Part shown: piece by piece, positions 10,836-29,348 of the stretch
Position numbering within the stretch: position 1 is the stretch's first letter
Layout of the letters: each line of letters starts with the position of its first letter
Virus record (IMG/VR): IMGVR_UViG_3300045988_139913
Reading direction: 5' to 3' (one strand)
DNA: 38,677 bases
Source: a virus
Taxonomy: Duplodnaviria > Heunggongvirae > Uroviricota > Caudoviricetes
Made by a program: the position numbers and the translations under genes
Notes under the pieces: model-generated
Told to the model about the DNA's origin: nothing
Seen by the model: the letters and a program-made list of their open reading frames with translations, nothing else
The model's database searches: none

Positions 10836-12315
10836 TAATCACCTCAATACTGACGCCACCGGGAACAAACAACGGGTTGCTGATACCGTTCCTGCGGGCC
10901 AGCCGTTGCCAGTTCCGGCTGTTTCCTGTGTAACGGTACAGGGCCACCATTGCAGGCATCGTCTCCGGCAGGCGGTGCGTTTCACTGCCCGCCAGTTGCA
11001 GCCCGCGTTTTTCCAGGTCGGCAACAACCAGCAGACGCAGTTGCGTAAGCTGAACGCTGTCTGTCGAAAAGCCCTGCTCAGATGCCGTCAGAATGACGGT
11101 ATCCAGTGCAGCCCCCAGCATGGCGGCTGTTTTTCCGATATCGGACACACTTTCAAATACCGGGGGCGTGGCTGTACCACTGTCTGAAAAGGATACCTGT
11201 GAAAAGCCGCCGTCCGGGGTTATGGCAGTTAACTGTAACTGTCCCTGTGTGACAGTAGCAGATGTGCTGCTGGCCCCGCTGGCTGTGCCGGTTGTGGTGG
11301 ACGGGGCATCCAGTACAGGTGCACGGGCGGCATTATCCATCCGGCGACTGAAATCCAGTGCCGCAGTCAGTGCCTGACTGGCAGCTTCTGCCCGGTATGT
11401 CTGCGCCGCTGCCAGCATGACGTAGTTCAGTGTGGCAATATTTTTTTCTGCAACCGGACTGTTGTACGAGGTTGTGATTGTCCCCTGTCTGCCTGCGGTG
11501 GCGGCATGGCGAGGTTCGAATCGCTGCGCCAGACGGTTCCATGTGGAAAATGCTGTCCGGGTATCGCATAACGATGAAACGCCGGACAGCGCCCCCATCA
11601 GCGAGGAGGCCAGCATGGCAGGCTGGTTAATCAGGCTGGTCACAGAGCCTTTCATCGCAGAAAGCGATCCCATCAGACCGCTGACAGTCTGCGTAACCCC
11701 CAGATTGTCCACCGCATCACTGATATCATCGATGACACCGGTTACAGCTTCCATCACGGCGGTTGCCGCCGCAGTGCCATCTTTTACGGTTTGCCAGACA
11801 GAGGACAGCGTATCTCCCAGAGAACCGGTTACAGCAACGGCCTGTGCAGGTACGGCTGCACTGGTGTCTGTCTCTGCGTCCGGGGCAGTATCCTGCAACG
11901 ACGGATAAACGGTAACGGTGAACGCGTAATAATTCAGTTCATCCGCTTTAGTGCGGCATTCCCATGAATCCACCATGACGTCCACAGTGCCGAAATCAGG
12001 ATGTACCAGCTCACCGCTACCCGGAGCATCAAGAGCATCCATCAGCGCACCCGCTTCATCTCTGGCTGTTTCTGCGTTGCTGTTCAGAATGCAGGCGCTG
12101 AATGTACGGGAGCGAAGCTTTTTCCCCAGGTCATTGACGCCGCCGGTATCACGTAACGGGTACTCGCGTTTAACCAGGCGACGTCCGCCAGCCTGTTTTT
12201 GCTCCTCGATGACGAGAAACGGCACGTTACGGAACGTGCCTTTGCCGGTTGTTTTCTTACCACCGCTGATTTTATCCCGGACAGCATTAACGGCATTTAA
12301 AGCATCTTCAAACAT
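10828..12315 (-). CDS. P: Tail/DNA-circularisation protein (Mu gp43-like)
   Basis: 495 aa immediately after tape-measure gene. Confidence 0.75.
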
Positions 12316-14392
12316 GGTTTTCCCAGCCTGTAATGTAGTTATCGCCCGCGTAAATATTCAGCCCCATACCATCCTCGGTGACACGGGAACTGGCCAGACG
12401 TAACCCCTCGCCAAGTTCGACGCGCAGCGAGGCTTCCGCATTCACTTTTTGTTCCTGCGGTTCCTTATCCGGGGCCGTCCATTTCTGATACAGGTCGGTT
12501 ACAAAACCGCCCAGATACTCCCCGGCGACACTGCCCAGCGTGGCACCGGCAACCGTACCCAGCGGTCCGGCAAGGCTGCCAACGGCACCGCCGAGCCATG
12601 CACCGGCTGTACTGCCAATTGCACCTGCTTTTTCATGGGTTGACGCCTGCTCATCCATCAGGACGGGGGCAAGCTGGAGTGCCCCCATTACCGGGCCACC
12701 CAGACGTGACAACGCACGACCGGCACCTTTCCCCATCCAGCCCAGCGCCCCGGCACCTTTTGTCACAACCCGACCGATCGCACTGCCTGCAAGTTTGTTT
12801 CCGATACCGGAAAACCACCCGCCAACAGCACGCCCGGCATCAGCCAGCTTTCCGACCGTTCCCGTAACCAGTTGCCCGGCAGCACTGCCTGCAAGCCTGC
12901 TCAGAAGACCGGATTTACCGGGTAAAGGTAATGGTGCAGGCCGTGCTGTTACCGGTACGCCGGGTGGGGGTAATGCCAGTACAGGGCGTGGTGCAGGTAA
13001 TGCCAGCGGCTGTGGCCCGGACAGCAATAACGGCTGGCGGGGTAACAGCGGGGCCATTCTTCCGCCGCTCCGTCCGCGACGACCGCCGCCACTCCCGTAG
13101 CCACCAAATCCACGGGGCCAGTTGATGACAAACACACGCTGAATGCCGATACCCTGCAACAGCGTCTCAGACGTCATGGCATCCGGGACCGGCAGACCTG
13201 CCTGCCCACGTTTGCGGTTTCGCATCCAGCGCCACATACGACGCCCGGTTTTAAACGGATAACTGGCAACCTGCCATGAGGGTTTTGCCACGGCCCAGCC
13301 TGCTCTCAGGGCTTTATTGGCAAGCCAGACAGACACCAGAACAGCAGCCAGTTTTTTCAGGCTGACAATATTCTGGTCAACCCATGCCAGCGCATCTTTA
13401 CCCGGTTTCAGCCAGCGCCATAATTCCTGCGCCGCGATTTTTACCGTTCTGAACGTGGTCAGAAATTTCTGACCAATGTTTTCTGCCAGTGCGTCAAGTT
13501 CCCCGGATTTATCCGCCATGTCGTGCCAGTTAAGCACCCGGCGCATCTCGTTCTTGATTTCTTCAAAGGGGCCGCTGTTTGCCACCTTTATGCGAAATTC
13601 AAGCAGGTTAGCTTCCATCTGGGCGAACATCCCGTCCCAGGAGTTCATCGCACTGGCCTGTGCACCTTTTGACTGTTCTGACAGCGTTCTGAATACCGTC
13701 AGAATGGATTTCAGACCCAGCTTGCCTTTTTCACCTTGTTTGCGGATATCCTTAACGTCTTTACCCAGTGCATCCGCCAGCGTCTGGTAAACGTTAATAC
13801 CGTAACCGGTCAGCAGGTTGGCATCCGCCGCTGTGATTTGCTGGCGGGCAAACATCTGTTTCAGTTGCAGTGAGGCACCCTGTGCAGTTGGTAAATCCCA
13901 GCCGTGCATGGCCCCCTGATCCTGCAACATGGTGATGAACTGTTTCGTCTGTTCATCCGTCATGCCGAAGCCTTTCGACGAACGGATCTCATCAAGAACA
14001 CCACTCAGCCCCCACGTGGTGTCCTTCGCGTTCTGCTTCGCCCAGGCCATCATGGCCTGCGCTCTGACCTTATCGCCGTGATACAGCGAGTTCATGGCGA
14101 TGATCTGCTGCTCACGCTGGGCGGCTGCACCAATAAACAGTTTATTGGCGGTGTAACCCACGCCAGCGATACCCAGCGCCCCGGCTGACAGCATTCGGAA
14201 TGTACGGGTTGACAGAGAACCCATTCTGTCAATGGCACCAGAAACGCGCACAACCTCCATACGCAGGGCACGAAGGGAACTTTGTCCGCTACGGGACAGG
14301 GCGTTTATCTGGTTCGAATACTGGCGGGAACGCCGGGAAAGATTGCCATTAAGATCAATAATGACAGACGCCTTTAAGCGTTTCCCGGTCAT
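12308..14392 (-). CDS. N: Tail tape-measure protein
   Basis: 694 aa, longest tail gene, Gly/Pro-rich low-complexity core, located between chaperone-like Y and P. Confidence 0.85.
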
Positions 14393-14536
14393 AGAGATTT
14401 CCTGATTTAACGGTGATATTGAGAGAGGGTTTTAGCCTGCTGGCAGTGCCGGAAAAAGCGGGACAGCGGAAGGGATAAGGCCCATTCCGGGCCACTTTTC
14501 AGAATAACGCCAATCGCTGTCGCCGCTTTCTCAATA

Positions 14537-14971
14537 TCATTCCGGCACCGCAGCCACTCGCCCCCGTTCTTGCGTCAGCGATGCCGCCACAGCCATGTCG
14601 TACATTTCTGTGGCCAGCGACAGACGCTGGAAGTCATCGACAGACAGCTTACGAATCAGCGCCATCGACAACGGGCCTTTGATGCAGCCCACGCTGGCAA
14701 TCTGTCGGCGCAGCATTTCCAGTCCCATCCGGGACGGGGAACTGACCAGCACCGGACCTTCCTTGCTCATTACCAGCTTTTCAGCAGCCGCCTGTGCATC
14801 AATCATATCGCCTGCGGTCAGTTCACGCAGTGTCACGTCATACTGCATTTCAGTCTCGTCACCGGTGCCGAACGGCAGGCCGTCTTTCAGTTTCAGCACG
14901 CCGGACTGAATTTCTGCCACAATGCTGTCATGCAGTTCCTGTGCTTCAGGACCTAAATTCATTTCGTCCAT
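14537..14971 (-). CDS. Y: Tail assembly chaperone-like protein (Mu gp41-like)
   Basis: 144 aa, between tail tube and tape measure. Confidence 0.7.
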   Translation of the reverse strand: MDEMNLGPEAQELHDSIVAEIQSGVLKLKDGLPFGTGDETEMQYDVTLRELTAGDMIDAQAAAEKLVMSKEGPVLVSSPSRMGLEMLRRQIASVGCIKGPLSMALIRKLSVDDFQRLSLATEMYDMAVAASLTQERGRVAAVPE

Positions 14972-14980
14972 TGTTTCCCC

Positions 14981-15337
14981 TTATGCAATGCGTTTGCTTT
15001 GTTTTGCCATCAGTACCAGCGAAATTTCGCCGCCGTCGTTTTTCGGTTCATCTGCCTGCCAGGCATTCGCCATCATCCAGGTTTCACCGGTGTCTGCCTG
15101 AAACTCTGCCGTGATATTTTCCCAGCCGATGATTTCATCCAGACCGATATCACCACCGCCCGGAATTTTGCATTCCAGCTTTGCGGCACGTGGTTTACCT
15201 TTCCAGCCATAAACCCGCGAGCCGGTCACTTCTTCACGGGTGATGCCGGAAGGTGTGAAGGAGGCCCCTTCCATCGTTTCAAGCTCCATGCCATTGACAC
15301 GGATGAACGCCACCCCCTGACGCTGATTTCCAGCCAT
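14981..15337 (-). CDS. M: Tail tube protein
   Basis: 118 aa directly after sheath gene. Confidence 0.8.
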   Translation of the reverse strand: MAGNQRQGVAFIRVNGMELETMEGASFTPSGITREEVTGSRVYGWKGKPRAAKLECKIPGGGDIGLDEIIGWENITAEFQADTGETWMMANAWQADEPKNDGGEISLVLMAKQSKRIA

Positions 15338-15346
15338 AAATGCTCC

Positions 15347-16834
15347 TTACAGAATGAACTGAACTTGTGCCGCGAAAATGCGGAACTGGTTAATCAGATT
15401 CGGGCCGCACAGCACATCAAGACGGTCTTTGTCGTCCTTGTTACGTGCCACATACAGCTCCTCTTTGAACGTGTCGAAATCCTCGACCAGTCCGGCGTTT
15501 TCCCATTCTTCAAACAGTGCCAGCAGTTCCGTTTTGATCACGGATGGCGTCACCACGGCCTGACCGGTGGCAAAGCGGGTGCCATCACTTGCCAGCTTGT
15601 AGTTCGGGAATTTCTGCGTGATGCGGGTTCGCAGCGAATAACGCAGATAACTCAGCGTGGCGATGGTATTCACGTTCAGATAAGACGGATCACTGTCACC
15701 GTACTTGTTTGTGCGGTACATCGTGATCATGCGTTCAATCTGCATTTCACCACCATCATTCACGTTAAACGTGGAGATGCCGTCAAACAGCAGCGCATTA
15801 CGTTCTGACCAGGTAAAACGATCCCCCACCGCAGGCGGCATTCTTCCGGGCAACGTCAGCGTCTGGAGCGGACGCGCCGGGTCGATGGAAAGCGCCTGGC
15901 TGGCAACGGCACACAGTGTGGCGGCGTACAGATATGACGGTTCCGGTGCACCGGCAATCCCCATACAGGAGATCAGATGGTCATTACGACTGACACCAAA
16001 CGTAGAAATATCCCCATACGTGCCGGACAGCACTGTCACGGCAAAACCATCAGCCTGATTGACCGGTCCCCAGCGTTCCTGCAATTCAGTGCGTAACAGA
16101 TTCAGGTTCGGTTCATCGGTATAGGGCATCACAATATATTTGTATTGCAGATCGCCCATTCCCGCGATACTTGCGCTGATATCCGGGTTGCCATTTTTCC
16201 CGGAGGCGGCTTTGAATGCCGTGATAATCCCGTAAGGGGTGGTTTCACCCGCGTAATAGTTCCAGCGCACGTCCACGGCAGATAATGCACCCGTAAATTT
16301 TGCACTCAGAACCACATCTGCATGGGTGTCATCATCTCCGCTGTCTGCGCGAACTTCTGCCGTCACCGGTAAATCCGGCTGGCCTTTGATTCGGGCAACC
16401 AGCAGGTCAGCCAGCGCCGCTCCCGTTGCACCTGCTGCGACAGATACCGCCAGTCGCTGACCGGCAATGTAAGTCACAAGCGAGCCGTTTTCGCCTGCCG
16501 TTCCTGACAGTGAAATTTCACCGACAGCAGCATTACCGGTGCCGTTCCCCTGCGGAATACACCACAGCTCCGCCACGCGGTTAGCGTTCAGGAATGCATC
16601 TGCCATCAGTGCCAGCATGGAACCCTGACCAAACGCCGCACTGGCCTGTGAGCCGGAACGGATACGGACAGGCACGTTTGGTGCCGCACTGGCTTTACTT
16701 CCGCTTTGCCCGAACATCAGCACGCGCTGACGGGGTGCCGGTGTTCCGCTGACGGCATTACTGTTATCAAATTCGATATACGTCAGAGGAACGCGAACAT
16801 CTGACGGGATCGCGTTAAATGAAATATCGCTCAT
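15347..16834 (-). CDS. L: Contractile tail sheath protein
   Basis: 495 aa; size and position as Mu gpL. Confidence 0.85.
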
Positions 16835-17037
16835 TTCGATTTACTCCGTTTTTTCGGCGCAGCGTCGGTATCATCCGCCGTGTTTTCGGTGTTCCCGACT
16901 TCAACCACATCACCGGCTGCAAGGCGACGTATCCAGAAACTGTTACGGGGCTTTTCTTCTCCCTCCGGAGCCAGTAATTTCATCGTGAGCGGGTCACGGA
17001 TGGCTTTTCCCGCTGCGGGTTTAATTTTCAGCATCAT
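16831..17037 (-). CDS. Small protein (Mu gp38-like)
   Basis: 68 aa, translationally coupled between K and L. Confidence 0.55.
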
Positions 17038-17569
17038 GATCCTTTTCCTGATTCACATTGATATGTGCGGCAAATTCCGGGGTTTCGTCCGGGAATTTCC
17101 AGGTCTGCCAGTGACGCTCGTAATCATCCAGCGAATCCATGTCCACCACGGACGGCAGCGGGGTAGTGCCACTGAACAGAACGCCGTAAAGCACCACACC
17201 GGCATTGATACGGTTGTCGTCACAAAGATTTCTGACCTGCGTCAGTCTCATCCCGGTGGTCGGGCCAAACGTCTGACCGTTAACACCGGCAATCAGTCGC
17301 TCCACAATCTGATAAATACCGGGCCGGTTTACCTGTTCCCCGTTCAGCAACTCCGCCACGACAAAAAATGCCCAGCGACTTTCAACTTCCCGACGCGTAC
17401 GCCCCTCACCACAGCCCATCCATGCCAGAAATACCGATGGCGGGGCCAGAAAGAGACGGTGCACATCCTCGTTAGTCCATGTGCCGGTAAGGGGTTCCAC
17501 CTGCCGCAGGGTTGCCCCAAACAACTCACGAACGCGCGCCAGCAGTGCGGCTTCGGTTTCTTCCAGCAT
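17021..17569 (-). CDS. K: Head-tail completion/neck protein (Mu gp37-like)
   Basis: 182 aa, Mu order J-K. Confidence 0.7.
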   Translation of the reverse strand: MLEETEAALLARVRELFGATLRQVEPLTGTWTNEDVHRLFLAPPSVFLAWMGCGEGRTRREVESRWAFFVVAELLNGEQVNRPGIYQIVERLIAGVNGQTFGPTTGMRLTQVRNLCDDNRINAGVVLYGVLFSGTTPLPSVVDMDSLDDYERHWQTWKFPDETPEFAAHINVNQEKDHDAEN

Positions 17570-17994
17570 CAGATAAACCCCTTCTGTTTTCGTGAGAAGA
17601 CCGGCGCGTCAGACTGCACCTGCACAAGGTTTTCACCATCCGGCGAGGCTGCCGTCCTGCTTTCCACGCCGGGATCTGTTTTGCCATCGCGCACCTGTTC
17701 CAGCCAGCGCACTGTGTCCCTGTAGGCAGCGGTGATCTGCTCGGTGGGTTGTGATTCATTCAGATAAAACCAGGCCACCACGCAACACTGCCGTTTCAGC
17801 AGTGAGGGGACGACGGTAAGCGGCAGAACAAAGCGCGCGGCGAGATAGCCATCAATAAAGGCCGAGGCATCTGCCAGTGCCTGTTCTGCCACGGCATCAT
17901 CCGGCTGCCCGTCCGCTGTTTTAGGGCGGGTGAGAATATCCAGCCGCGTACGTGTATAGCGGGCGCACAGGTCATTTACCGTCGCGTAATTCAT
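17569..17994 (-). CDS. J: Head completion protein (Mu gp36-like)
   Basis: 141 aa, Mu order. Confidence 0.7.
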   Translation of the reverse strand: MNYATVNDLCARYTRTRLDILTRPKTADGQPDDAVAEQALADASAFIDGYLAARFVLPLTVVPSLLKRQCCVVAWFYLNESQPTEQITAAYRDTVRWLEQVRDGKTDPGVESRTAASPDGENLVQVQSDAPVFSRKQKGFI

Positions 17995-18401
17995 GCATCC
18001 GCCTCAGCCAGCGCCGCTTTGATTTGCGCACTGCTCACCGGTTCCCCCAGCGCCGCACTGACGGCTTTCACTTTGGGTTCTCCCCCTGCGGTAAAGTGCT
18101 CCGGGTTTGCCTTATCCAGACCGGCAACGGTCGCACGGATACGGGTATTCAGATCGCCCACACCCAGAACGTCCAGCCCCCCAGCCTCAGCGAGCGTTTC
18201 TGCTGACGATGCAGATACCACAGACAGCACGCTGTCGGCACGAATGATCGCCAGTTGTTCTTCGGTGACTTCCACGGTGTTTTCACCACGTGTAAAGGCG
18301 ATTCCGGCGCGGCGGTAGACCGGACGAAGGCATTTAATAATCGCCGTGCAAGTGATGCGAGAAGTGTCCAGCCGTTGTGAATTAAGCGAAGTGCCTGACA
18401 T
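17991..18401 (-). CDS. Conserved head-region protein (Mu gp35-like)
   Basis: 136 aa, strong RBS AAGGAGGAG, directly after major head gene. Confidence 0.65.
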   Translation of the reverse strand: MSGTSLNSQRLDTSRITCTAIIKCLRPVYRRAGIAFTRGENTVEVTEEQLAIIRADSVLSVVSASSAETLAEAGGLDVLGVGDLNTRIRATVAGLDKANPEHFTAGGEPKVKAVSAALGEPVSSAQIKAALAEADA

Positions 18402-18433
18402 AACACATGCTCCTCCTTTTCCTTTAAATCAGG

Positions 18434-18461
18434 TTAAAAGGCGGCCTGAACCGCCTTTTAA
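18434..18461 (-). terminator. Perfect palindromic stem-loop immediately downstream of major head gene T
   Basis: TTAAAAGGCGG-CCTGAA-CCGCCTTTTAA in the 66-bp T/gp35 gap. Confidence 0.45.
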
Positions 18462-18467
18462 CGACGG

Positions 18468-19385
18468 TTACAGGTAGTCAGCGACAACCAGTTGCAGCTT
18501 GCCCTTCATCTCGTTGGAGACGGTGGTATTGCCATCCGCGAACAGTTCACGGTTAAGCAGTTGCTCTGCGGCTTTTTCCAGTCCGACCGGTACAACGATA
18601 TGCGTCGGCTTCAGGCCCAGCTTCTTACCGCCATCACCTTCAAAAGAGCGCATCAGTTGCCAGCCCTTCCAGAGGTTATCCAGCGTCAGATCGCCTTTTA
18701 TCGCGACAGCCATCTGCCAGAAGCCGTAACCGGCAGCACGGCGGGCGCTGGCACCAAACAGGAACTCGTTATCCATAAAAACGTGGTCGTCATCGATACG
18801 GGTACGTGCGACCAGCTCCGGTTTGCGGCGCTCCTGGAAAATCAGCGGTTTGACTGCGCGGGAGCAGTCCAGCAGATAGAACGGCAGACCGCTGAAGCTG
18901 TCCTGCTCAACGATGTTGGAGGTATTAACCGCGCTGCCCGTGCCGTCCACATTCGGATATACCGGATGCTCCTTGTCGAAGAAGTTCTGACCGTCATAGC
19001 ACGGCTGGGTAAAGCCATCTTTCAGAAGTTTAAAAATCAGCTCATCCGGCTGAACTGCCGCAGAACGGCCCATCTCCTGAAAAATCGGCGCATAAATACC
19101 CAGATTGTCATCCTCGAAGTCATCACGGGAAATACCCACGGTGCCTTCAAACGTTTTATTGGCGATGGAGTAGCCATGCGCTTCCATTTGCTGAATGGTT
19201 CGCTTACCCACCCATTCTTTCAGGGTCGGGAATTTACCCAGCCAGCCATAGGTATTACTGCGGGTGGAAGAGTTCACCACCATTGCAATTTTGTTGTACT
19301 GCGACGGGGCGTCTTCAAGACCGCCCTGAAAATCCTTACGCCAGGAGGTCATCAGGGCTTTAATGGATGCCGGGGTGACAATCAT
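18468..19385 (-). CDS. T: Major head (capsid) protein
   Basis: 305 aa; size and position as Mu gpT. Confidence 0.85.
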   Translation of the reverse strand: MIVTPASIKALMTSWRKDFQGGLEDAPSQYNKIAMVVNSSTRSNTYGWLGKFPTLKEWVGKRTIQQMEAHGYSIANKTFEGTVGISRDDFEDDNLGIYAPIFQEMGRSAAVQPDELIFKLLKDGFTQPCYDGQNFFDKEHPVYPNVDGTGSAVNTSNIVEQDSFSGLPFYLLDCSRAVKPLIFQERRKPELVARTRIDDDHVFMDNEFLFGASARRAAGYGFWQMAVAIKGDLTLDNLWKGWQLMRSFEGDGGKKLGLKPTHIVVPVGLEKAAEQLLNRELFADGNTTVSNEMKGKLQLVVADYL

Positions 19386-20467
19386 TTTTCTTGTTCCTGT
19401 TTCATTTTCAGATACTCAGCCTCTGTAATGCCGAGCGCCTTCACTGCTGCCTGTTCATCAGCAGACAGCACCGCCACCGCCGTTTTTTCCTGCGACGGGA
19501 TTTTCGCTGTGGTGGTCTGCATGGCAGATAACGCAGCGATAGGCTGTTTTTTCTCAAGCTGTGCCGACAGTGCCGCCACGCCAATCTGACCGCCAAGCTG
19601 TTCCAGATAGGTACGTTCGCTTTTGAAAATGCGGCCTTCCTGTTCCGCCTTGTCCAGAACGGCGCTCAGGCTGGCTGTGGCGCTTTGTGCAGTCGCCTGT
19701 GCCAGTTCATCACGCAGGGCGTTGTAGCTTTCCACCGGGACGTATTTCGTCAGGTCAACGGCGGCTTTCTGTGCCTTTTCCAGTTCGGCAGACAACGCCG
19801 CCACTTTTCCGGCATCTGTTTCGAGCGCATCAAGCGCACTCAGGGCCGCGCTGGCCTGTTCATCGGTGATGTCTGCATTTTCGGGGACCGTCACCCCAAG
19901 ACGCGCAAGCAGCTTGCGCAGCGTTTCATTCATGGGTTTGTTCTCCTGTTGAAGGATGTCGGGAAGGTCTGCCGCCAGTGCGGTCAGCTTTTTCATGCCG
20001 GTGGCACCGGGGTCATTGGTCAGCGCAGCAAGGCGGATTTGCAGCACTGCACCGGTGGCGGTGTCATACGGAAAAACCGCAGAGAGATAACCAAATTCGC
20101 CGTCATCGATGCGCTGCTGGGCCGCCGCCGTCCAGCGTGGGTGGATAAATAACCCTTCACCTTCACGCCACTGCATTTCATCGGCGTTAAACCAGCCAGC
20201 CGCGACGAGTTGTTCCGGGGGTAATCCTTTGTCCTTACGTAGCTGGTTATGCTCGTAATCAATCAGCACGTCCTGGTTGAGCGCGCGAACGCCTTCAACC
20301 AGACGCCCGGCAATCTCACCGTCGATGAACCACCCCTGACCGTCTGTCACATCAAACGGACGACCATCACGGGCACTGAAATGACCGGCAGGCAATAGCT
20401 GGCACCAGCCGTCATCGTCAATGGACAGCGCACTCAGTGCGGCAATGCCAATCGCGTGTTTTTTCAT
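19382..20467 (-). CDS. I: Head protease/scaffold protein I (scaffold Z expected as nested C-terminal product)
   Basis: 361 aa, Ala/Glu-rich coiled-coil C-terminus, precedes T. Confidence 0.8.
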   Translation of the reverse strand: MKKHAIGIAALSALSIDDDGWCQLLPAGHFSARDGRPFDVTDGQGWFIDGEIAGRLVEGVRALNQDVLIDYEHNQLRKDKGLPPEQLVAAGWFNADEMQWREGEGLFIHPRWTAAAQQRIDDGEFGYLSAVFPYDTATGAVLQIRLAALTNDPGATGMKKLTALAADLPDILQQENKPMNETLRKLLARLGVTVPENADITDEQASAALSALDALETDAGKVAALSAELEKAQKAAVDLTKYVPVESYNALRDELAQATAQSATASLSAVLDKAEQEGRIFKSERTYLEQLGGQIGVAALSAQLEKKQPIAALSAMQTTTAKIPSQEKTAVAVLSADEQAAVKALGITEAEYLKMKQEQEK

Positions 20468-20663
20468 GTCCTGCTGCTCATCATGGTTTGTGAGCAGTCA
20501 GTTTGCGGGAGGTGCGGGAAAATCTGGGGTTATGCTATTTGAGTAATGGAGAAAGAAAGTGGAAGGAAGATAAAACGGGATTCATACACCGTTAAATACC
20601 GGTTTAAAAATCCCGTGGCGCGTTTTAAAAAATCTGTGCGGCTGATTTCATGTCTGATTCAGT
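20468..20663 (-). promoter_or_regulatory. G-I intergenic region: candidate late promoter P_I and position of the Mu central strong gyrase site
   Basis: Only ~200-bp non-coding gap in the late region, ~18.0 kb from the left end; contains GCATAACCCC (minus orientation) ~60 bp upstream of I. Confidence 0.45.
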
Positions 20664-21134
20664 TTATTGCCTCAGAGCGGCGCTGACGCGTTTTCTGATG
20701 GCATCAAAAATTTCCTGTTCCCCGGTCTTATCCAGCCCCATATAAGGACGCGCAGGAACGCCTGCCGGGCGGGGTGCCATATCGGGTGTACCGCCCCACT
20801 GATGAATGGCAGCATAAATTTTTGGCGAACCAATAAGGGCATAATCCTGTCCATAATCGGTGGTAATGCTGCGTGCCAGATCGCCATGCAGGGTAAGGAT
20901 ACTGCCCGGAACAAAACCATGATCCTGACGCCATGCCTGCCACGAATCGCTCCACGCTTCCCAGCCTTTCCCTGTATCCGGGTCTGCCTGCCGTTCAAAT
21001 GCCTGTTCCGTGGATGACAGCAGCGCCGCAGCCATCACACGGGGAATGGCGCGGTCACGTGTAACGGTTCCCAGTTCATCCAGTGCAAGCTGAATACGTC
21101 GCACATCCACGGCAACGTTCATATCAAGACTCAC
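20664..21134 (-). CDS. G: Virion morphogenesis protein G
   Basis: 156 aa, Mu order F-G. Confidence 0.75.
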   Translation of the reverse strand: MSLDMNVAVDVRRIQLALDELGTVTRDRAIPRVMAAALLSSTEQAFERQADPDTGKGWEAWSDSWQAWRQDHGFVPGSILTLHGDLARSITTDYGQDYALIGSPKIYAAIHQWGGTPDMAPRPAGVPARPYMGLDKTGEQEIFDAIRKRVSAALRQ

Positions 21135-22486
21135 TTATTCACCTCCACATGCCCCTCCAGTATGTCAATCATCCCGTCAGCAATCGCGGCTTCAAGCGAC
21201 TGTGCAGATACGCGGCTGATACTGACCAGCACATCCGCCCGGTCATTCTGTTTGCTGACAGCCTGCGATGTTCTGACCACAACTTTTGCAGTGCCGTCGC
21301 GGGTTGCCACAACATACAGCAACTGGTGGTTCTCCCTGTCCCACAATACCGCCTGTGGTTTTGCCATCAGCGACGGCAGACGCTGTAAATCCTCCGGTTT
21401 CAGGGCGGCATCAGCAGTGGTCGCCAGACTTTTCCCGTTCATCACAAGCAGACGGGCTGGCATATTCCCGGTGCGCTGATATACGGCCTCCGCCACGGAT
21501 CCCGTCATAAAACCCAGCGTACGGACCTCATGTCCGGCCCGGCGTGATTTCGCCAGACGTTTAAGCCAGAGGGAAAAAGCAAGCTGACGCTCCCGGCTGT
21601 TATTCAGCGTCTGAACAACCTGCTCACGCAGCTGCGCGTCACGAACTTCCACCAGTTTTCGAATCAGTGCCTGATCCGTACCAAATGCCGCCGAACCGGG
21701 GTTATATGACCAGCCCACATCTGGCGTCATTTTTACCCGACCGTTGTCAAACGTGGTTGACGATGTGCGGAAAATCTCTCCGGTGCTTTCATCCGTACCG
21801 GCATCCACTTCGCGGGTATTCATGAATGACGTACCATAACTGACCTGTAGCCCCAGTTCTTTCATGCGGGCCGCAGACAGCGCCCGGACGCGACAGCGGC
21901 AGTTCCAGCCATTGGGCGGGTAATGCGTCTGCCAGAAAATGTCGTCATACCGGAAAACCATATTGTGCAGCCGCGCATGTTCCGGGCGTGTTCTGCCATC
22001 CATAACGGCAACGTACTGCCAGTACGGGTACAAATCGGCGGTATTCATCATCTGCGCATAACGTCCTGCCCCATACGCCGTACGGGTATTGACGTTATAA
22101 ATGGTTGCCAGACGACGCGGACTGCCCAGCTCGATTACCTTTGCGTTTCCGTCTGCATCCACGATGATTTGTTTTCCCCACCATCCGAGTTTTTGCAGCC
22201 GGGGGGCAAGTGTGCGGGTAAATTCCTCACGGGTGATGCCTTCACTGACAGCCCGCTCCACTTCCTCACGGATTGTGGTCAGTACATCCATCCGGGTGGC
22301 TTTGGCAACGGTAAAGGCGCAGGCGTGCGCGTCTGCCAGTTGTTCGTACCAGTTCCAGGTGATGTTGTAACCTTTGGCGCGGAAATACGCGACAGCCTCC
22401 TTTGGCGGGAGGCGTGCGGCATACGCCAGATCAATGGTCTGCTGCGGCATCCAGACGCCCCCATATATCGGCAACAAAAATGGCAC
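21131..22486 (-). CDS. F: Minor head/morphogenesis protein F
   Basis: 451 aa; ORF-track start is GTG, alternative ATG at 22450; overlaps 3' end of portal gene. Confidence 0.75.
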   Translation of the reverse strand: MPFLLPIYGGVWMPQQTIDLAYAARLPPKEAVAYFRAKGYNITWNWYEQLADAHACAFTVAKATRMDVLTTIREEVERAVSEGITREEFTRTLAPRLQKLGWWGKQIIVDADGNAKVIELGSPRRLATIYNVNTRTAYGAGRYAQMMNTADLYPYWQYVAVMDGRTRPEHARLHNMVFRYDDIFWQTHYPPNGWNCRCRVRALSAARMKELGLQVSYGTSFMNTREVDAGTDESTGEIFRTSSTTFDNGRVKMTPDVGWSYNPGSAAFGTDQALIRKLVEVRDAQLREQVVQTLNNSRERQLAFSLWLKRLAKSRRAGHEVRTLGFMTGSVAEAVYQRTGNMPARLLVMNGKSLATTADAALKPEDLQRLPSLMAKPQAVLWDRENHQLLYVVATRDGTAKVVVRTSQAVSKQNDRADVLVSISRVSAQSLEAAIADGMIDILEGHVEVNK

Positions 22487-23969
22487 GGGTCAGCATGTCG
22501 ATAAGTTCTGCATCATCCATCTGCGGATATAATGAAGCGGCTTTGTTCATGGCGGCTTCCGGGCCATCTTTCAGCACAGAAAGAATGACTGGTTTCAGCA
22601 GGGGATCAACCGAACGCTGCCAGTCTTCCGGTGAGACGCCCATCCGGTCGATATCATCCTCCTGCGGGATATCTTCAGCGGATAATGCGGCCTCTTTCTG
22701 CGGACCGTTATCCATGACGACCGGTTGAGCAGTAAACACGGCTTCATCACCGACCGGCTGTGGAATATGGAGTTTTTCCTGTATCCATGAGACCGGAATA
22801 CGCATTCCCGCCGCCAGTTTCGGAATGGCGTCAGACAGTGCCGTAATATCACCCGCTTCACTGGTATCAAATACAATGCCCGGCAGGCGGTTAATATCAA
22901 TGGTGCTGTCACTGTTCAGTGCCAGCAGGGGATAAATCAGGTCACGGTTAATACTGCGGGCAAGCTGGCCCACATCCGCGTTACGGATTTCCCGGCGAAC
23001 CTCATCATGCACTTCACCCAGCGACCGTGCACCTTTATCGCCAGCCTCTGTGGTCAGGGTGCCGCCCAGAATGGCTTTTGAAATCGCTTTTTCTGCCCAG
23101 CCAATCATCGCCATAAAGGGGTCTGACTGACCATCTGCGGCGCTCTGAAAATCCAGCGTCATCCCCATCGGAATAATGCCACCGGCACGTCGCCCGATAT
23201 CCATCACGGCCTGCATCAGCGTGGCTTTCTCGCGGTTCGTGGAGCCGGTCGGATATTTACCGACGCGCATGGGGAGTCCGTAAATTTCCAGAAACTCTGC
23301 AAAATCACGCACGGAATAGTTTTTAAAAATAAAAGGCCAGATAAGCGTGCGCACAAGGCCATTGGTGCCGACATACCCGGTGCGGGATTTGGCCCGGTGC
23401 ATAAACCAGCCGAACGGTTGCAGCTCCAGCCCGTGATAAGACGTATCACGCAGACGTAATTCGTTCAGATTATCGGGGTTCGCGCAGAACAGCGCCGGAT
23501 CGCGATGATGCAGCGCCACCGGCACGCGCATTTTGCCCAGCCAGCCCCATTCAATCTCCTGCATGGAATAACCCTTGAGAATGGCATCACCGGCATCAAA
23601 CAGGGCATCTTCAAACCACGCCGCATCATGCAGATATTCATTCAGCATGTCGGCGTCTTTTTTCTCCTGTGCGCTGGCATCACGTGCCGGAGCGATGCGC
23701 CATTCCAGCGCCTGAATGGCAAGGCGGCGCTTGCTCAGTTCGGAAAAAAGGTGGGTGTCCTTTTCTTCCATATCAAAGGCCAGGTCAGCCTGTGCTGTCA
23801 GATCACCGCGTTCGGCATCACGCAGCATCTGCGCGGCCCGGTTCGGCGTCACACCACTGGAAGGATGCTCCTGCGTGCGCTTCATGACCATTGCCAGCTC
23901 ATCGCTGCGGGTCTGCATTTCATCGTCAAAATCAAACGGCTGCCCGGAAATATCCAGAATACGGCCCAT
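22431..23969 (-). CDS. H: Portal protein (Mu gpH-like)
   Basis: 512 aa directly downstream of large terminase. Confidence 0.8.
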   Translation of the reverse strand: MGRILDISGQPFDFDDEMQTRSDELAMVMKRTQEHPSSGVTPNRAAQMLRDAERGDLTAQADLAFDMEEKDTHLFSELSKRRLAIQALEWRIAPARDASAQEKKDADMLNEYLHDAAWFEDALFDAGDAILKGYSMQEIEWGWLGKMRVPVALHHRDPALFCANPDNLNELRLRDTSYHGLELQPFGWFMHRAKSRTGYVGTNGLVRTLIWPFIFKNYSVRDFAEFLEIYGLPMRVGKYPTGSTNREKATLMQAVMDIGRRAGGIIPMGMTLDFQSAADGQSDPFMAMIGWAEKAISKAILGGTLTTEAGDKGARSLGEVHDEVRREIRNADVGQLARSINRDLIYPLLALNSDSTIDINRLPGIVFDTSEAGDITALSDAIPKLAAGMRIPVSWIQEKLHIPQPVGDEAVFTAQPVVMDNGPQKEAALSAEDIPQEDDIDRMGVSPEDWQRSVDPLLKPVILSVLKDGPEAAMNKAASLYPQMDDAELIDMLTRAIFVADIWGRLDAAADH

Positions 23970-25624
23970 TACCAGCCCCCTCGTTCAAACTGGTGATAAT
24001 CATCAAAATCATCGTTATCAACATCATCACCACGGTGGCGTGGTGGCAGCGCCTGTATGCTGTCCTCGTCGATAACAAAACCATTCATATAAGACGCCCT
24101 GACAGCCATACAGAGCGCCACGGCAAAGTCACCATGTCGTCGGCCTTTACCGCTTTCATCTTTTGTGCGCCCCTTATCAATCTGCGGAATACCTTTGTCC
24201 ACCTTGATATGAAGCAGGTCATCGAGTGTGGTCTGATGCCGGGCAATCGTGATGTTCTGCGCTTCAAACTCGCCTTTCAGTTTCGGCATCCACTCCTGAT
24301 ACCAGGCGGCGGTCAGACTGATGCAGTCGATCATCTCCGGGCCATAAATCAGACGGGCGGCTTCTGCCAGATAACCGCCGTTACCGGTGGCATCAAATGC
24401 AGCGCCGGTAAAACGGGGCAAACGGGACAGAATGAATAAAAGGATTTGTCGCTGCTGGTCATAGGTCACATTACGCAGCTCCACGCGGAAACATTCGCGT
24501 TTGCGTAAGTCAGGAGTGATGGCAAGCGGAACAAACACCGTCAGGTCGCCACGGCGTGCAAAGTCTTCGCCCAGTACGTGTTTATTGAGCGGCGACAGCG
24601 CATCGAGCAACGGGAGCAGCTCCTGTTCACACCAGTCCTGAACGATGCCGTGGCGCATTTGTGGTGTCAGCGATTCAAAATCGTCCGGGGCTTCAAAACG
24701 CAGAATCGGGATATCCCGCGCTGGCGTCATGGCGGCTTCAATCAGCACGCGTGACAGATAAGCGCCCCCGGATTTTTTAGGAATGCAGCCGTATTCCTCG
24801 TCGGCACTCTCTTTATTCGGCGCATTCCGGTACAGGCCATCACGCCAGGCTTTTTCCGCTTCCGGCGACCACGGCTGATTCGTGACGTAACAGATACGTC
24901 GGTACAACCCGTCAGCGATGGCATCATCCAGCGTGATGCGGTGAACGCTGTAATCCTTGCGCCCCTCGCGCGCATCCTGAATGTACTGGTTAAACAGGTT
25001 ATCGACGCCGTTATGTGTCGATATGATCCGCACGCGGGCACCCCACATGGTGAGAGCAAAGGCCGCTTTCAGGAGTTCGTCCAGGGCTTCATGAAATGCC
25101 GCCTCATCAATCACCACGTCCCCCTGCAAACCACGCAGGTTAGACGGACGGCTTGACAGCGCCTGCACCTTAAATCCGCTGTTAGGGAAACGGATCATAT
25201 AAGTGAGGATTTCTTCTTTTTTGTCGCTGTCCCAGAAGGTCTGCTCCCAGACATCAGCCTTTGCCAGCTGGTTAAAGGCGCGGGCAAACAGGGCACAGGC
25301 GGCGATATATTCCAGCGCCATTTCCTGACGGGAACCCACATAAAAGACGTTGCGACCGCCACGGCGGCGCGGCTTTGCTGCCGTCATGACATTGCGGCCC
25401 GCTTCGGCCCATGTCAGACCGGTACGACGGGATTTTTCAGCGATGCAAATCTGGCTTTCATCCTCAAACCAGCGGCGCTGATAGCCCAGAAAAACCGGTT
25501 CATTGCGGGGCTGTGCTTCCCCGATATCGGTCACGATATGCACGCCGAGCAGTTCGGCTTCCTCACGCAGGTTGATTTTTCGGGGGGCATGAAGGGCTTT
25601 AAGGTTGTTTTCTCTGGTGTTCAT
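23969..25624 (-). CDS. Terminase large subunit (Mu gp28-like)
   Basis: ORF-track ORF 23969..25816 trimmed to the ATG (MNTRENN...) just after the upstream stop; 551 aa. Confidence 0.8.
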   Translation of the reverse strand: MNTRENNLKALHAPRKINLREEAELLGVHIVTDIGEAQPRNEPVFLGYQRRWFEDESQICIAEKSRRTGLTWAEAGRNVMTAAKPRRRGGRNVFYVGSRQEMALEYIAACALFARAFNQLAKADVWEQTFWDSDKKEEILTYMIRFPNSGFKVQALSSRPSNLRGLQGDVVIDEAAFHEALDELLKAAFALTMWGARVRIISTHNGVDNLFNQYIQDAREGRKDYSVHRITLDDAIADGLYRRICYVTNQPWSPEAEKAWRDGLYRNAPNKESADEEYGCIPKKSGGAYLSRVLIEAAMTPARDIPILRFEAPDDFESLTPQMRHGIVQDWCEQELLPLLDALSPLNKHVLGEDFARRGDLTVFVPLAITPDLRKRECFRVELRNVTYDQQRQILLFILSRLPRFTGAAFDATGNGGYLAEAARLIYGPEMIDCISLTAAWYQEWMPKLKGEFEAQNITIARHQTTLDDLLHIKVDKGIPQIDKGRTKDESGKGRRHGDFAVALCMAVRASYMNGFVIDEDSIQALPPRHRGDDVDNDDFDDYHQFERGGW

Positions 25625-25631
25625 AACCCTC

Positions 25632-26222
25632 TCATGCCTTACCCAGCAGCACATCACGGATACGCTGCTCCAGCTCTTCGCTGATGCCATCCTGCCCGCG
25701 CAGTTCTTCACTGACGGCGTTTGCCGCTTCTTCTGCGAATGCCTGGCGGATTTCTTTCTCGCGCCGGTGGCTGGACATTGCCGTGGATTCCAGACGCTGT
25801 GCCGCCAGCATGGCATTTTTCAGCAGGTCAATATCCACGTCAGATTCCGGGTTTTCGATTTGCCGCATCATGGCCTTAAAAAGCTGGCTGCGGGCCATTT
25901 CCAGAATCAGCTTTGTGGTTTCTCCCATTGGCTTGTCGCCAAGTTCTGCGGTCAGTGCTGACGTCATTTCACGCATCTGTCGCAGGTTATGGCCTACTTG
26001 CTCGACGTTCGTCGCGTAACGGTTCAGACCGGAACGGGAGAGTTTCATCTCATCCGGCAGGCCAGCGTCTTCAATCAGTGCGTTAATTTCTTCCAGAATG
26101 CGGGCCTGTGGGATCGCCTTATCACGCAGCATTTCATGCAGCGTTTTACGTACGTTTTCCGGCAGTAAATCCACTTTTGAAGCCCGGCCCCGTGTTTTCC
26201 TGTCCATCACGCCTCCTGTCAT
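25632..26222 (-). CDS. Putative small terminase/DNA-binding protein (Mu gp27-like)
   Basis: 196 aa immediately upstream of TerL; alternative start at 26207. Confidence 0.55.
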   Translation of the reverse strand: MTGGVMDRKTRGRASKVDLLPENVRKTLHEMLRDKAIPQARILEEINALIEDAGLPDEMKLSRSGLNRYATNVEQVGHNLRQMREMTSALTAELGDKPMGETTKLILEMARSQLFKAMMRQIENPESDVDIDLLKNAMLAAQRLESTAMSSHRREKEIRQAFAEEAANAVSEELRGQDGISEELEQRIRDVLLGKA

Positions 26223-26509
26223 GCACGGGGACGCGGACGCTTGACACCGGCAACGCGGGCGCGGCCTTCCGCCACATCCTGACCTCGGGAGGTCAGCGTT
26301 ACGACATAAAAGCCGCGCAGGTTTTCCACGGTGACCAGTTGCTGCTCTGCCAGCCAGTCAATCTGGCCGCGAACCACATCGCGGGAAACGTTGTGTCCGT
26401 ATGCATCCAGACAGTCCTGAAGGATGGATTCGTTGGCTTCGTTATTGCAGTCCATCAGGGAACGCAGGATGACCAGACGACGGTCTTCAGTCAGAATATC
26501 GTTAATCAT
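26219..26509 (-). CDS. Conserved late protein (Mu gp26-like)
   Basis: 96 aa, translationally coupled in late operon. Confidence 0.55.
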   Translation of the reverse strand: MINDILTEDRRLVILRSLMDCNNEANESILQDCLDAYGHNVSRDVVRGQIDWLAEQQLVTVENLRGFYVVTLTSRGQDVAEGRARVAGVKRPRPRA

Positions 26510-26805
26510 GAATTACTCCGGTTTACTGCGTTTTCAAGCAGCAGCTCCAGTTGATGGGAAAATGACTGCACCCGCTGGGACAGCACCCGGATATCGCCGG
26601 ACAGCTCTGCAATACGCAGGCGCATTTCGTGTACATCTTCTGTGCCTGGGATGCTGGCGTAGCGGGTTTCCATTTCGGTCATCCGGTTTTCAAGACGCTC
26701 CACACGCTCGGTGCTGGCAAAACTACGACGCATCGCCCAGACGGCCCCACCGGCCACAACAGGCAACAGGTAAGGCCATAACGCTAAAACTGAAATCAAA
26801 TCCAT
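26506..26805 (-). CDS. Membrane protein with coiled-coil, Mu gp25 (releasin)-like
   Basis: N-terminal TM helix LISVLALWPYLLPVVAGGAVWA followed by coiled-coil; start chosen at Met overlapping upstream stop. Confidence 0.55.
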   Translation of the reverse strand: MDLISVLALWPYLLPVVAGGAVWAMRRSFASTERVERLENRMTEMETRYASIPGTEDVHEMRLRIAELSGDIRVLSQRVQSFSHQLELLLENAVNRSNS

Positions 26806-26999
26806 TATTCTGCTCCACGGCACCAGTGGCAGTAGTTCGCCATCGGCTGCTGTCTCAGCACATCAGGCCGCAGCTCACGACCGCAACCGGCACACAATAC
26901 AGGCGGGTCATACGCCGCCGGGCGGGGAATATCACGGGTATCCCCCTGCCAGAGTTCAGCGAGCAGCAGCACCACCGCCCGGTTCTGGTCTTCGTTCAT
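26805..26999 (-). CDS. Small Cys-rich protein (Mu gp24-like)
   Basis: 64 aa with CAGC...CHWC zinc-ribbon-like motif. Confidence 0.5.
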   Translation of the reverse strand: MNEDQNRAVVLLLAELWQGDTRDIPRPAAYDPPVLCAGCGRELRPDVLRQQPMANYCHWCRGAE

Positions 27000-27297
27000 A
27001 AATTTCTTTCCTCCGGGTCTCCTGTTCCCGGACTGATGCCTTGTCGCGGTTGCACTGCCCGAGCGCCATCAACAGGTCAGCATTCCAGAGAAGGGATGCT
27101 CCCCACGTCAGGGGCTGTGGCATGGGCGGAACGGGTGTTGCTTCCGTCAGTTCTGCATCAGTTTCGGGCAGGAGCACCACCGATGGCACGGGTGCGTTTT
27201 TCGAGTTCCCGCAACCTGTCAGCAGCACCGGCAGGCACAGGACGAGTGCTGCAATTGTCACCGGTAATGGCGGTTGTAATTTTTTGTTTTGCATCAT
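26956..27297 (-). CDS. o-spanin (outer-membrane lipoprotein, Rz1-like)
   Basis: Start at MMQNKK within ORF-track ORF 26956..27504; lipobox LLTGC; Pro-rich; out-of-frame overlap with 3' end of i-spanin gene. Confidence 0.7.
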   Translation of the reverse strand: MMQNKKLQPPLPVTIAALVLCLPVLLTGCGNSKNAPVPSVVLLPETDAELTEATPVPPMPQPLTWGASLLWNADLLMALGQCNRDKASVREQETRRKEIYERRPEPGGGAAAR

Positions 27298-27544
27298 GAT
27301 GTTCTGTCTCGTCTGCCAGCCGCGCGGCACGATTTGCGGCACGGATAGCGGAAAATACCTGCATCGTTTGCTCCTGACCGTGTAACAACCATTCAGCCGT
27401 GTGGCGGGCCTGTTGCTCCGTCTGTAATTCACGGCGCAGCGTCTGGTTATCGTGGCGGGTGCTGCCCAGCCTGTGCCACAACACACCGGACAGAACGGCG
27501 GCAAACACGGCTGCCAGCAGTAAACTTTTACTTGCGAAGGTCAT
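27158..27544 (-). CDS. i-spanin (Rz-like)
   Basis: 128 aa, N-terminal TM helix then coiled-coil periplasmic domain, directly after endolysin. Confidence 0.7.
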   Translation of the reverse strand: MTFASKSLLLAAVFAAVLSGVLWHRLGSTRHDNQTLRRELQTEQQARHTAEWLLHGQEQTMQVFSAIRAANRAARLADETEHHDAKQKITTAITGDNCSTRPVPAGAADRLRELEKRTRAIGGAPARN

Positions 27545-28046
27545 CCGCCCCCCTGATATTCCAGATTGCCATTTCCACTTCGCGACGGTTCATCAGTCCT
27601 TTCCATTTATGGCCTGCGGCAAACACCCAGCGGGCCATCTGGTCACGCGCTCCGGCGTAATCACCGGCATTGAGTTTTTTCAGCAGCGTTGATTTACTGA
27701 ATGCGGTAACACCAGTGTTGAAAATAAACGTTGCCAGCGCCGTTTTCTGATATGGCGTCAGCGGCACCCTGACAAGACGATCGATTGCCGCATAAACCGG
27801 TTTTAAATCACTGTCGAGGAGAGCCATACACTCCGCATGGCTGTAACGGCGCATTTCGATATCCGGCCCGGTATGTCCCACACAGACCGTAAGCACACCG
27901 GCAATATCGCGGTAAGGCATATAAGCGATATTTTCCAGATGGATCAGAGACTGACGGGTCATTTCCTGATAACCACCCACACCGCCACCGGCAATCGTTA
28001 CAGCCAGCAGTGTGGCTTTCAGTTTTTTTGGTATCCCCGCCATCAT
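27528..28046 (-). CDS. lys: Endolysin (lysozyme), SAR-type N-terminus
   Basis: 172 aa; weakly hydrophobic Gly/Ala-rich N-terminal segment LLAVTIAGGGVGG typical of signal-anchor-release endolysins; first gene of late operon as in Mu. Confidence 0.85.
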   Translation of the reverse strand: MMAGIPKKLKATLLAVTIAGGGVGGYQEMTRQSLIHLENIAYMPYRDIAGVLTVCVGHTGPDIEMRRYSHAECMALLDSDLKPVYAAIDRLVRVPLTPYQKTALATFIFNTGVTAFSKSTLLKKLNAGDYAGARDQMARWVFAAGHKWKGLMNRREVEMAIWNIRGADDLRK

Positions 28047-28098
28047 GCTTCCCTGAAAAAATGCTCTGATGGCAGTCTAAAAAATCAGGTGGCAGATG

Positions 28099-28109
28099 CG
28101 GGATTATGG
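28099..28109 (-). promoter_or_regulatory. Candidate C-activator half-site upstream of lys (Plys)
   Basis: CATAATCCCGC (minus orientation) ~55-63 bp upstream of lys ATG; same ATAAYCCC motif seen upstream of I and com. Confidence 0.35.
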
Positions 28110-28117
28110 TGACAGGA

Positions 28118-28144
28118 AATAACCGGCAGGATGCCGGTTATTTT
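28118..28144 (-). terminator. Hairpin at the end of C (middle-operon terminator candidate)
   Basis: AAATAACCGGCA-GGA-TGCCGGTTATTT, 12-bp perfect stem overlapping the C stop codon. Confidence 0.5.
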
Positions 28145-28560
28145 GGGCTTTCAGGTGAGAACAGATCAGGCTGATGACGTCGTGTATGCAGCTTTCTCTG
28201 GCGGGCAATAATCTGGTAGATCTGCGGCTGGGACAGGCGGTACTGGCGACGCAGTTCTTCCATGTTACGACCATTAAACTGGCAGTAAAGCAAATCGTCG
28301 CGTAACGCGGTCAGGATCGTATCGCCGCAGGGGATGTAAAACTGCCGTCCACCCAGAAAACATGACAGGGCAACGGCCTGTTTACGGGCAAGTTCACGGG
28401 GATTGCTGACGTTCTGGCGTTTCAGTTCGTTTTCCAGAACATCAATCAGATCAACCACCGAACGGGGCCAGCGTGATTCCAGTTCCGGGGCCGGGATGTT
28501 ATCAATATGTCCGATTAACTGGCGAATTGCCGGATCGTGTTCAAATAAATCATGCTGCAT
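28138..28560 (-). CDS. C: Late transcription activator C
   Basis: 140 aa; paralogous to Mor (shared ...YIPRG/YIPCG...NGRN...EL...Y core); last gene before lys. Confidence 0.9.
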   Translation of the reverse strand: MQHDLFEHDPAIRQLIGHIDNIPAPELESRWPRSVVDLIDVLENELKRQNVSNPRELARKQAVALSCFLGGRQFYIPCGDTILTALRDDLLYCQFNGRNMEELRRQYRLSQPQIYQIIARQRKLHTRRHQPDLFSPESPK

Positions 28561-28572
28561 ATTTTCCCCCGG

Positions 28573-28692
28573 TTAACAGACAGAAAGATACACCACGGCA
28601 CTGATGGTTATCAGAACCACAAGGGCAATCACTTTTATCGCACTAATCAGCGTGGACGGCCCGAAACATTCATCACTGAATTTTCTGTACAT
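28573..28692 (-). CDS. Small membrane peptide (39 aa; Mu gp20-like position)
   Basis: Hand-read ORF MYRKFSDECFGPSTLISAIKVIALVVLITISAVVYLSVC, single TM helix; below ORF-track cut-off. Confidence 0.4.
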   Translation of the reverse strand: MYRKFSDECFGPSTLISAIKVIALVVLITISAVVYLSVC

Positions 28693-28701
28693 GGTGCCCC
28701 T

Positions 28702-29064
28702 TTACCCGAACAGACGAGCGCGAAAACGAAAGGAGATCCAGAACGTCAGCAATCCGGCCAGCGCCCAGATGACATGCTCAGGACCCGTTTTCAGTTGAGA
28801 CGTTGCCATCACGGCTAATCCCAGCCCGGACAGACTCCCCAGCCAGGTCAGAGGCCAGACGAACCGGGCAAAATGTTCAGGCACCCGGCAGCTCATTATC
28901 AGCGCATCCAGGCAATCACCGGCAACACATAAAGCAACACTGAAAACCGAGGCACAGCAAAACATCAGCGCGCGCCAGCCACAAAACAGACTTATCCACA
29001 ATAACAGCGCCAGTAACACCACCGATAAAAAATCAGGCCACTGACGAGCAGAACGCTCAGACAT
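28702..29064 (-). CDS. Multi-pass membrane protein (Mu gp19-like)
   Basis: ORF-track ORF 28702..29115 trimmed to internal Met; 3 predicted TM segments. Confidence 0.55.
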   Translation of the reverse strand: MSERSARQWPDFLSVVLLALLLWISLFCGWRALMFCCASVFSVALCVAGDCLDALIMSCRVPEHFARFVWPLTWLGSLSGLGLAVMATSQLKTGPEHVIWALAGLLTFWISFRFRARLFG

Positions 29065-29275: not shown

Positions 29276-29319
29276 GATGATTTCCCCCGGTACGGTTATT
29301 CATCACAGGATATTGAGGA

Positions 29320-29348
29320 CGTAAAAAAAGCCGGATTAACCGGCTTTA
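29320..29348 (-). terminator. Rho-independent terminator of the early operon
   Basis: AAAGCCGG-TTAAT-CCGGCTTT followed by TTTTT immediately after mor stop (symmetrical A-tract/T-tract). Confidence 0.7.

Follow-up and report, generated by a model that had tools for sequence, protein, structure and literature searches.

The G–I intergenic region of a D108-type Mu prophage: strong gyrase site, terminator-like hairpin and late promoter as overlapping elements

The 196-bp gap between genes G and I in the viral DNA analyzed here is, with near certainty, the G–I control region of a Mu/D108-type prophage, in which the strong gyrase site (SGS), a terminator-like hairpin and the late promoter P_I are packed together as overlapping cis elements. 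All coordinates refer to the window, i.e. the whole stretch of 38,677 nucleotides of the IMG/VR record IMGVR_UViG_3300045988_139913, unless those of phage Mu are named. The SGS explains how a 37-kb transposon locates both of its own ends within a chromosome. Its location in the G–I gap is already known and annotated in GenBank; only two points of our analysis are new, and mildly so. The first is the existence of two alternative natural haplotypes of the SGS core that are combined with an invariant right arm; the second is the finding that, across several genera, no other non-coding feature of the gap is as conserved as the phased A/T tracts of this right arm.

The G–I gap and its prophage

According to the list of open reading frames, the gap extends from 20468 to 20663 between G and I, and the minus strand carries every gene surrounding it. 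The features that define this setting are the following:

20468..20663, minus strand: G–I intergenic region, 196 bp, equivalent to Mu 17860-18055 (ORF list and alignments)
20664..21134, minus strand: gene G, virion morphogenesis / Neck1 (PF05069 Phage_tail_S, 'Phage virion morphogenesis family', 1.6e-42; Mu_31 annotation)
19382..20467, minus strand: gene I, head maturation protease, with an internal start for scaffold Z (PF10123 Mu-like_Pro, 'Mu-like prophage I protein', 1e-97; Mu_32/Mu_33 annotation)
20465..20472, minus strand: Shine-Dalgarno AGGA (20472-20469) and ATG of I (20467-20465), read from the sequence
1605..38581, minus strand: complete Mu/D108-type prophage, 36,977 bp (end sequences, 5-bp duplication GCGGG, megablast to D108, Mu and Mu_3F6)

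An earlier note on this DNA had claimed a 196-bp gap between G and I; it is found at exactly these coordinates, and the identity of both neighbours is backed by Pfam. The same note had described the gap as the single non-coding island of the late region. This largely holds, the gap being the largest non-coding stretch there with only smaller ones besides it: the Mu annotation leaves one of 66 bp (T/gp35; window 18402-18467) and others of 4-14 bp, and the C/lys gap, which contains P_lys, measures 94 bp. A further apparent gap of 144 bp (14393-14536), between the tail assembly chaperone and tape measure genes, is covered in Mu by a verified -2 frameshift product (Mu_56).

The left end of the prophage lies at 38581 on the minus strand (TGTATTGATTCAC... 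/ TGTATTGATTCACTTGAAGTACG...) and the right end at 1605 (...GCCGCTTCA / ...GCGCCGCTTCA). Next to each end stands the 5-bp direct repeat GCGGG (38586-38582 and 1604-1600), the target duplication expected from Mu transposition. In a megablast comparison, the prophage agrees with Mu_3F6 (LR595867) at 100% identity throughout. The early, immunity end (25000-38581) is of the D108 type: D108 aligns from nt 1, Mu only from nt 1519. The extreme right end (1605-2208) is likewise D108-type, with D108 aligning to its last base and Mu stopping at window 2208. Judged by its sequence, the prophage is a D108-type Muvirus, and the presence of the SGS confirms a complete and probably replication-competent element of the Mu/D108 type.

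Two observations concern the surroundings and the variable part of this element. The Mu-type prophage sits within another prophage (window 1-1604 and 38582-38677), and many E. coli genomes match this flank at 99.8% in their 'phage portal protein / terminase large subunit' regions. The tail-fibre / invertible G-segment region (3094-7065) is unlike that of reference Mu; megablast coverage breaks there, and the region contains two ORFs on each strand, of 395 and 161 aa (minus) and of 247 and 177 aa (plus).

The gap had also been placed at the centre of the prophage, which holds approximately. It lies 17,919-18,114 bp from the left end, i.e. at 48.5-49.0% of the prophage length and thus near the centre, but about 550 bp away from the exact midpoint at window 20093. 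Within it, 17,938 bp separate the gyrase cut from the left end and 19,039 bp from the right one; the relative position of the cut is 48.5% here versus 48.7% in Mu.

Strong gyrase site, late promoter and hairpin

A megablast query with the 1.3 kb between 19900 and 21200 returned matches to 13 phage records, with identities of 100% for Mu_3F6, 99.2% for D108 and 98.8% for Mu. The gap itself agrees with Mu 17860-18055 at 191 of 196 positions, differing by five substitutions and no indels. In the matching stretch of Mu, GenBank (AF083977/NC_000929) annotates three features, namely a 'gyrase cut site' at 17879/17880, a TransTermHP terminator at 17908-17953 and a 'late promoter, PMID 2522923' at 17977-18043. 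Transferred to the window, these correspond to a cut at 20644/20643, a terminator at 20615-20570 and a promoter at 20546-20480. Furthermore, Sutormin et al. (PMC6379681, Table S2) used a 133-bp piece of the Mu SGS in binding experiments in vitro, and this piece is identical to window 20579-20711 at 129 of 133 positions. Of the four mismatches, that at 20642 is a change specific to the plasmid fragment from pMP1000, and the remaining three are natural polymorphisms. The earlier note had described the gap as the place where Mu has its strong gyrase site and had named alignment with the Mu sequence as the check, a lack of similarity speaking against it. This alignment was run and the similarity is clear; the near-identity of the gap, the annotated cut site inside it and the match to the in-vitro fragment all argue for the proposed assignment. 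The SGS is composed of the following parts, for which no strand is given:

20644..20647: 4-bp gyrase stagger, GATT on the plus strand and AATC on the Mu top strand (GenBank cut site; PMC11626157)
20551..20643: SGS right arm (Mu about 17880-17972), outer limit approximate (identity to Mu, phased A/T tracts)
20648..20700: left half of the SGS core and left arm, into the 3' end of G, outer limit approximate (alignments; PMC6463007)

The mapped cut runs between 20643 and 20644 on the plus strand and between 20648 and 20647 on the minus strand. Window 20640-20649 reads GGCT/GATT/TC; the central tetranucleotide is unchanged, and the sole change nearby is T to C at 20649. Over Mu 17880-17960, the right arm of the window is 100% identical to that of Mu. 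According to a review, the SGS spans about 150 bp and has a left arm of 40 bp (PMC6463007); hence, the left arm extends some 40-50 bp into the 3' end of G, beyond the gap.

On the other side of the cut, towards I, the right arm contains the hairpin and is followed by the promoter. These elements and the gene of the activator are:

20569..20616, minus strand: terminator-like RNA hairpin with UUUUAU at 20574-20569 (RNA fold; TransTermHP at Mu 17908-17953)
20480..20546, minus strand: late promoter P_I ('late promoter, PMID 2522923', Mu 17977-18043; ATAAC-C motif)
28138..28560, minus strand: gene C, activator of the late promoters including P_I (PF08765 Mor family, 9.4e-34; position equal to that of Mu_21)

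In P_I, the right half of the C-activator site reads ATAACCCC (20533-20526) and the -10 hexamer CAAACT (20505-20500). The ATAAC-C element is common to four late promoters of Mu, i.e. P_I, P_lys, P_P and P_mom, and the spacing of 24 nt from ATAA to the -10 hexamer equals that of P_lys. Two differences are evident: compared to P_lys, P_P and P_mom, P_I has a poor match to the left half of the C dyad, and the upstream edge of the promoter (20546) is T in the window, not G. A simple scan of 20300-20800 detected no sigma-70 -35/-10 pair. This is what an activator-dependent promoter without a -35 element is expected to give, and P_I would be such a promoter. C-dependent transcription has reportedly been seen to start at P_I of Mu, and judging from published experiments on that phage, initiation at P_I would depend on C here as well. 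The layout fits activation by a C dimer bound around -43.5, as described in PMC2582627.

The hairpin lies inside the right arm of the SGS and coincides with the terminator annotated by TransTermHP in AF083977. In the predicted fold of the minus-strand RNA, its stem (20616-20575) consists of a 9-bp outer stem, ACGGGAUUU/GAAUCCCGU, and an inner stem of 4 bp; the folding energy is -19.8 kcal/mol, with z = -2.9, or z = -3.1 in a longer context. The simple promoter/terminator scan of 20300-20800 did not call this hairpin, owing to its internal loop and the short U-run. The hairpin is probably the 3' end of the lys–G late transcript. Zha, Zhao and Howe (1994) are said to have mapped the 3' end of the lys transcript to this very site.

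Could a structured non-coding RNA, or some other known RNA element, be encoded by the gap instead? One hairpin does fold better than shuffled sequence (z about -3). However, this sole stable structure is a hairpin with a U-tract, as is typical of terminators, its fold shape is not conserved in the corresponding regions of relatives, and a search of Rfam returned no family match to the gap at E <= 1. We regard such an RNA as scarcely credible. A small protein is just as hard to credit. Public records do annotate two candidates as CDS, a 46-aa ORF on the plus strand (20546-20686) in Mu_3F6 and a 42-aa 'gene 31.5' on the other strand in D108. Yet without the G-to-T SNP at 20546 the former would have no ATG, and neither Mu nor SE11-type prophages nor the other genera have this ORF; the latter, by the D108 coordinates as read here, starts with the non-standard ATC, and the indels that the SE11-type shows in the alignment would break its frame. 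Pfam contains no match to the 46-aa ORF. Moreover, conservation in the gap follows the phased A/T tracts and the promoter elements and exhibits no codon pattern. Since the start of the 46-aa ORF stems from a single SNP and is missing in Mu and more distant relatives, its annotation is probably spurious, and we rejected the small-ORF hypothesis.

Accordingly, we retain the reading of the gap as a control region. Two further claims of the earlier note agree with these results: the late promoter P_I had been located in the gap, where the annotated Mu promoter maps and motif, spacing and the gene for C are all present, and the ORFs of the gap had been considered short and spurious, which the SNP-dependent 46-aa frame bears out.

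Core haplotypes and conservation of the right arm

Three of the substitutions lie in the core and on the left side of the SGS (20649, 20653 and 20661), i.e. at Mu top-strand positions -2, -6 and -14 as counted from the scissile bond; the D108-type haplotype has G, A and T there, respectively, and the Mu type A, G and A (Mu 17874, 17870 and 17862). We aligned 14 sequences, comprising Mu, D108, SfMu, four phages of Yersinia or E. coli, six E. coli prophages and the window. The three-SNP haplotype is common to the window, D108 and FDAARGOS_1058, and it is partially present in vB_YpM_5, Tongde and RM8082. D108 and the window differ at two positions of the gap and share all three core SNPs. In the right arm (Mu 17880-17960), only 4 of 81 columns vary among the 14 sequences, each of them in one sequence.

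These SNPs permit a different view, according to which the gap holds the terminator of the lys operon and P_I alone, the D108-type gyrase site being weakened or non-functional. The changes are indeed close to the scissile bond, the published consensus, as aligned to the cut, has A at -2 in place of the G of the window, and a terminator-like hairpin and a promoter are both present. Against this view, the right arm is identical to that of Mu, the tetranucleotide is unchanged, and the left side is reported to be dispensable. Moreover, the same haplotype is found in D108, which is a propagated phage, and in several Mu-type phages and prophages; because D108 is the very reference phage that matches the early end, the allele is unlikely to be defective. 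A site of lost function is therefore very improbable, and we continue with the reading of the gap as containing an SGS that probably works.

Laboratory nuB mutations, which are located next to the scissile bonds, alter the efficiency or the processivity of cleavage by gyrase. One might speculate, though we consider it rather unlikely, that the D108 core is a natural allele of nuB-like kind that tunes cleavage efficiency or processivity and, separately, that the TTnnAAnG tracts described below are a signature predicting SGS-like sites in Mu-like prophages outside Escherichia. The change at -2 is the mirror image of the change at +5 that separates the pMP1000 fragment from wild-type Mu. The 'Mu SGS' fragment of pMP1000 differs from wild-type Mu at window 20642 (Mu 17881), where the window has the wild-type base; the pMP1000 base occurs naturally in RM8082 (L015) and in SE11-type prophages (L005, L006). 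As far as the figure legend of PMC6463007 goes, the base changes given for nuB1/nuB103 and the sequence of the pMP1000 fragment are not in obvious agreement.

The region is present in 44 of 5,426 complete E. coli genomes; three carry a 76%-identical prophage, here called SE11-type. A scan with protein I, using one genome per species, yielded seven Mu-like prophages. Kluyvera contributed three of them; the other four come singly from Erwinia, Apirhabdus, Edwardsiella and another member of the Enterobacteriaceae. Six of the seven (L019-L022, L024 and L025, positions about 2750-3000) keep a G–I gap of 207-245 bp, and the SE11-type prophage of E. coli (L005, 1568-1768) also keeps one of about 200 bp; in the Edwardsiella relative (L023), the gap is rearranged and measures 624 bp. 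The gap is retained in Mu-like prophages of four other Enterobacterales lineages. Six lineages, including Kluyvera, Erwinia and Apirhabdus, were aligned over G–I gaps of 196-245 bp, with the following shares of invariant positions:

Proximal right arm: 31% invariant, 56% invariant by W/S class
Neighbouring spacers: 0-5% invariant
C-site region: 32% invariant
-10 element: 57% invariant

Three TTnnAAnG tracts of the right arm (20628-20621, 20607-20599 and 20596-20590, with spacings of 21 and 11 bp) are invariant in all six lineages; the TpA steps of this arm lie at about +19, +40 and +52 from the dyad. In the more distant lineages, the third A/T tract coincides in part with a hairpin, so that conservation at this point is not assignable to gyrase function alone. 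The sequence GCAGG..CATG, i.e. the Shine-Dalgarno and the start of I, is invariant in all aligned lineages. Of the promoter, ATAACCCC is kept in the window, the SE11-type and one of the prophages from the protein I scan (L019) and has diverged in Kluyvera, Erwinia and Apirhabdus; the -10 element, its spacing from ATAACCCC and the GCAGG Shine-Dalgarno persist in the other lineages. Taken together, the two core haplotypes with an invariant right arm and the conservation of the tracts agree with the literature, which regards the right arm as the functional determinant.

Taken by themselves, sequence signals of a gyrase site are weak. In a Fourier analysis, the W/S periodicity of about 10.5 bp in 20569-20631 ranks 232nd among 38,615 sliding windows of 63 bp, i.e. 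in the top 0.6%; several coding stretches exceed the right arm in A/T periodicity, and the signal is supportive, neither unique nor diagnostic. In a crude scan for matches to the published 133-bp gyrase consensus (exact and by S/W class), which is dominated by GC content, the SGS ranks from 359th to 3,500th and so does not stand out.

Function of the site in Mu and comparison with known systems

To our knowledge, the SGS of Mu is the strongest gyrase site known, and it is a standard substrate for studies on the mechanism and structure of gyrase. Its deletion delays the replication of Mu by about 100 min, the block affecting transpososome assembly and end cleavage; a central position is best, the site needs its right arm but not its left one, and the strong gyrase sites of pSC101 and pBR322 are unable to replace it in Mu replication (reviewed in PMC10052514). 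The proximity of the prophage ends and the chromosomal domain that Mu forms on its own depend on the SGS, gyrase and a central location (PMC3820752). Topo-Seq revealed cleavage of the Mu SGS by gyrase in vivo at the same bonds (PMC6379681). For Mu, it has also been shown that gyrase binds the site with high affinity and that quinolone induces one strong cleavage there (PMC6379681, PMC10052514). A cryo-EM study with a 217-bp Mu SGS fragment located the scissile bonds at 5'-T/GATTT-3' and, on the opposite strand, at an A/A step; in this structure, the CTD of GyrA is wrapped by the right arm (PMC11626157).

From these published Mu experiments, gyrase binding, cleavage and a role in the synapsis of the ends are to be expected here too; because the experiments were done on Mu and not on this allele, it is the near-identity of the two sequences from which we infer them. 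Host DNA gyrase would bind the SGS with very high affinity and cleave at the GATT stagger (20644-20647), and the A/T-phased right arm on the I side would wrap the C-terminal domain of GyrA and present the T-segment, leading to fast and processive negative supercoiling. Given that the SGS lies near the middle of a 37-kb prophage, a plectonemic loop could form with the SGS at its apex and the two arms aligned. Such an alignment may join the left end with the right one for the assembly of the transpososome and for replicative transposition, and the loop driven by the SGS may also keep the prophage as a separate chromosomal domain. With regard to transcription, the hairpin and U-tract within the right arm most likely terminate the late transcript from lys to G, and C-dependent P_I would drive I, Z, T and the downstream genes.

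Compared to known systems, the G–I region is closest to that of Mu_3F6, to which it is 100% identical and whose record differs in annotating the 46-aa ORF. The region of D108 shows nothing of substance that is different, apart from the doubtful 'gene 31.5' in its record. With the SGS of Mu, the window shares the locus, the neighbouring genes, the 196-bp gap, the tetranucleotide and the right arm, and it differs by five SNPs. The strong gyrase sites of pSC101 and pBR322, as well as the 130-bp Topo-Seq motif, follow a common logic, i.e. a central cleavage position flanked by arms with GC/AT phasing of about 10.5 bp that wrap the CTD; the sequences of the two plasmid sites, however, are unrelated to the Mu SGS, and in the window it is one arm, the right one, that carries the signal.
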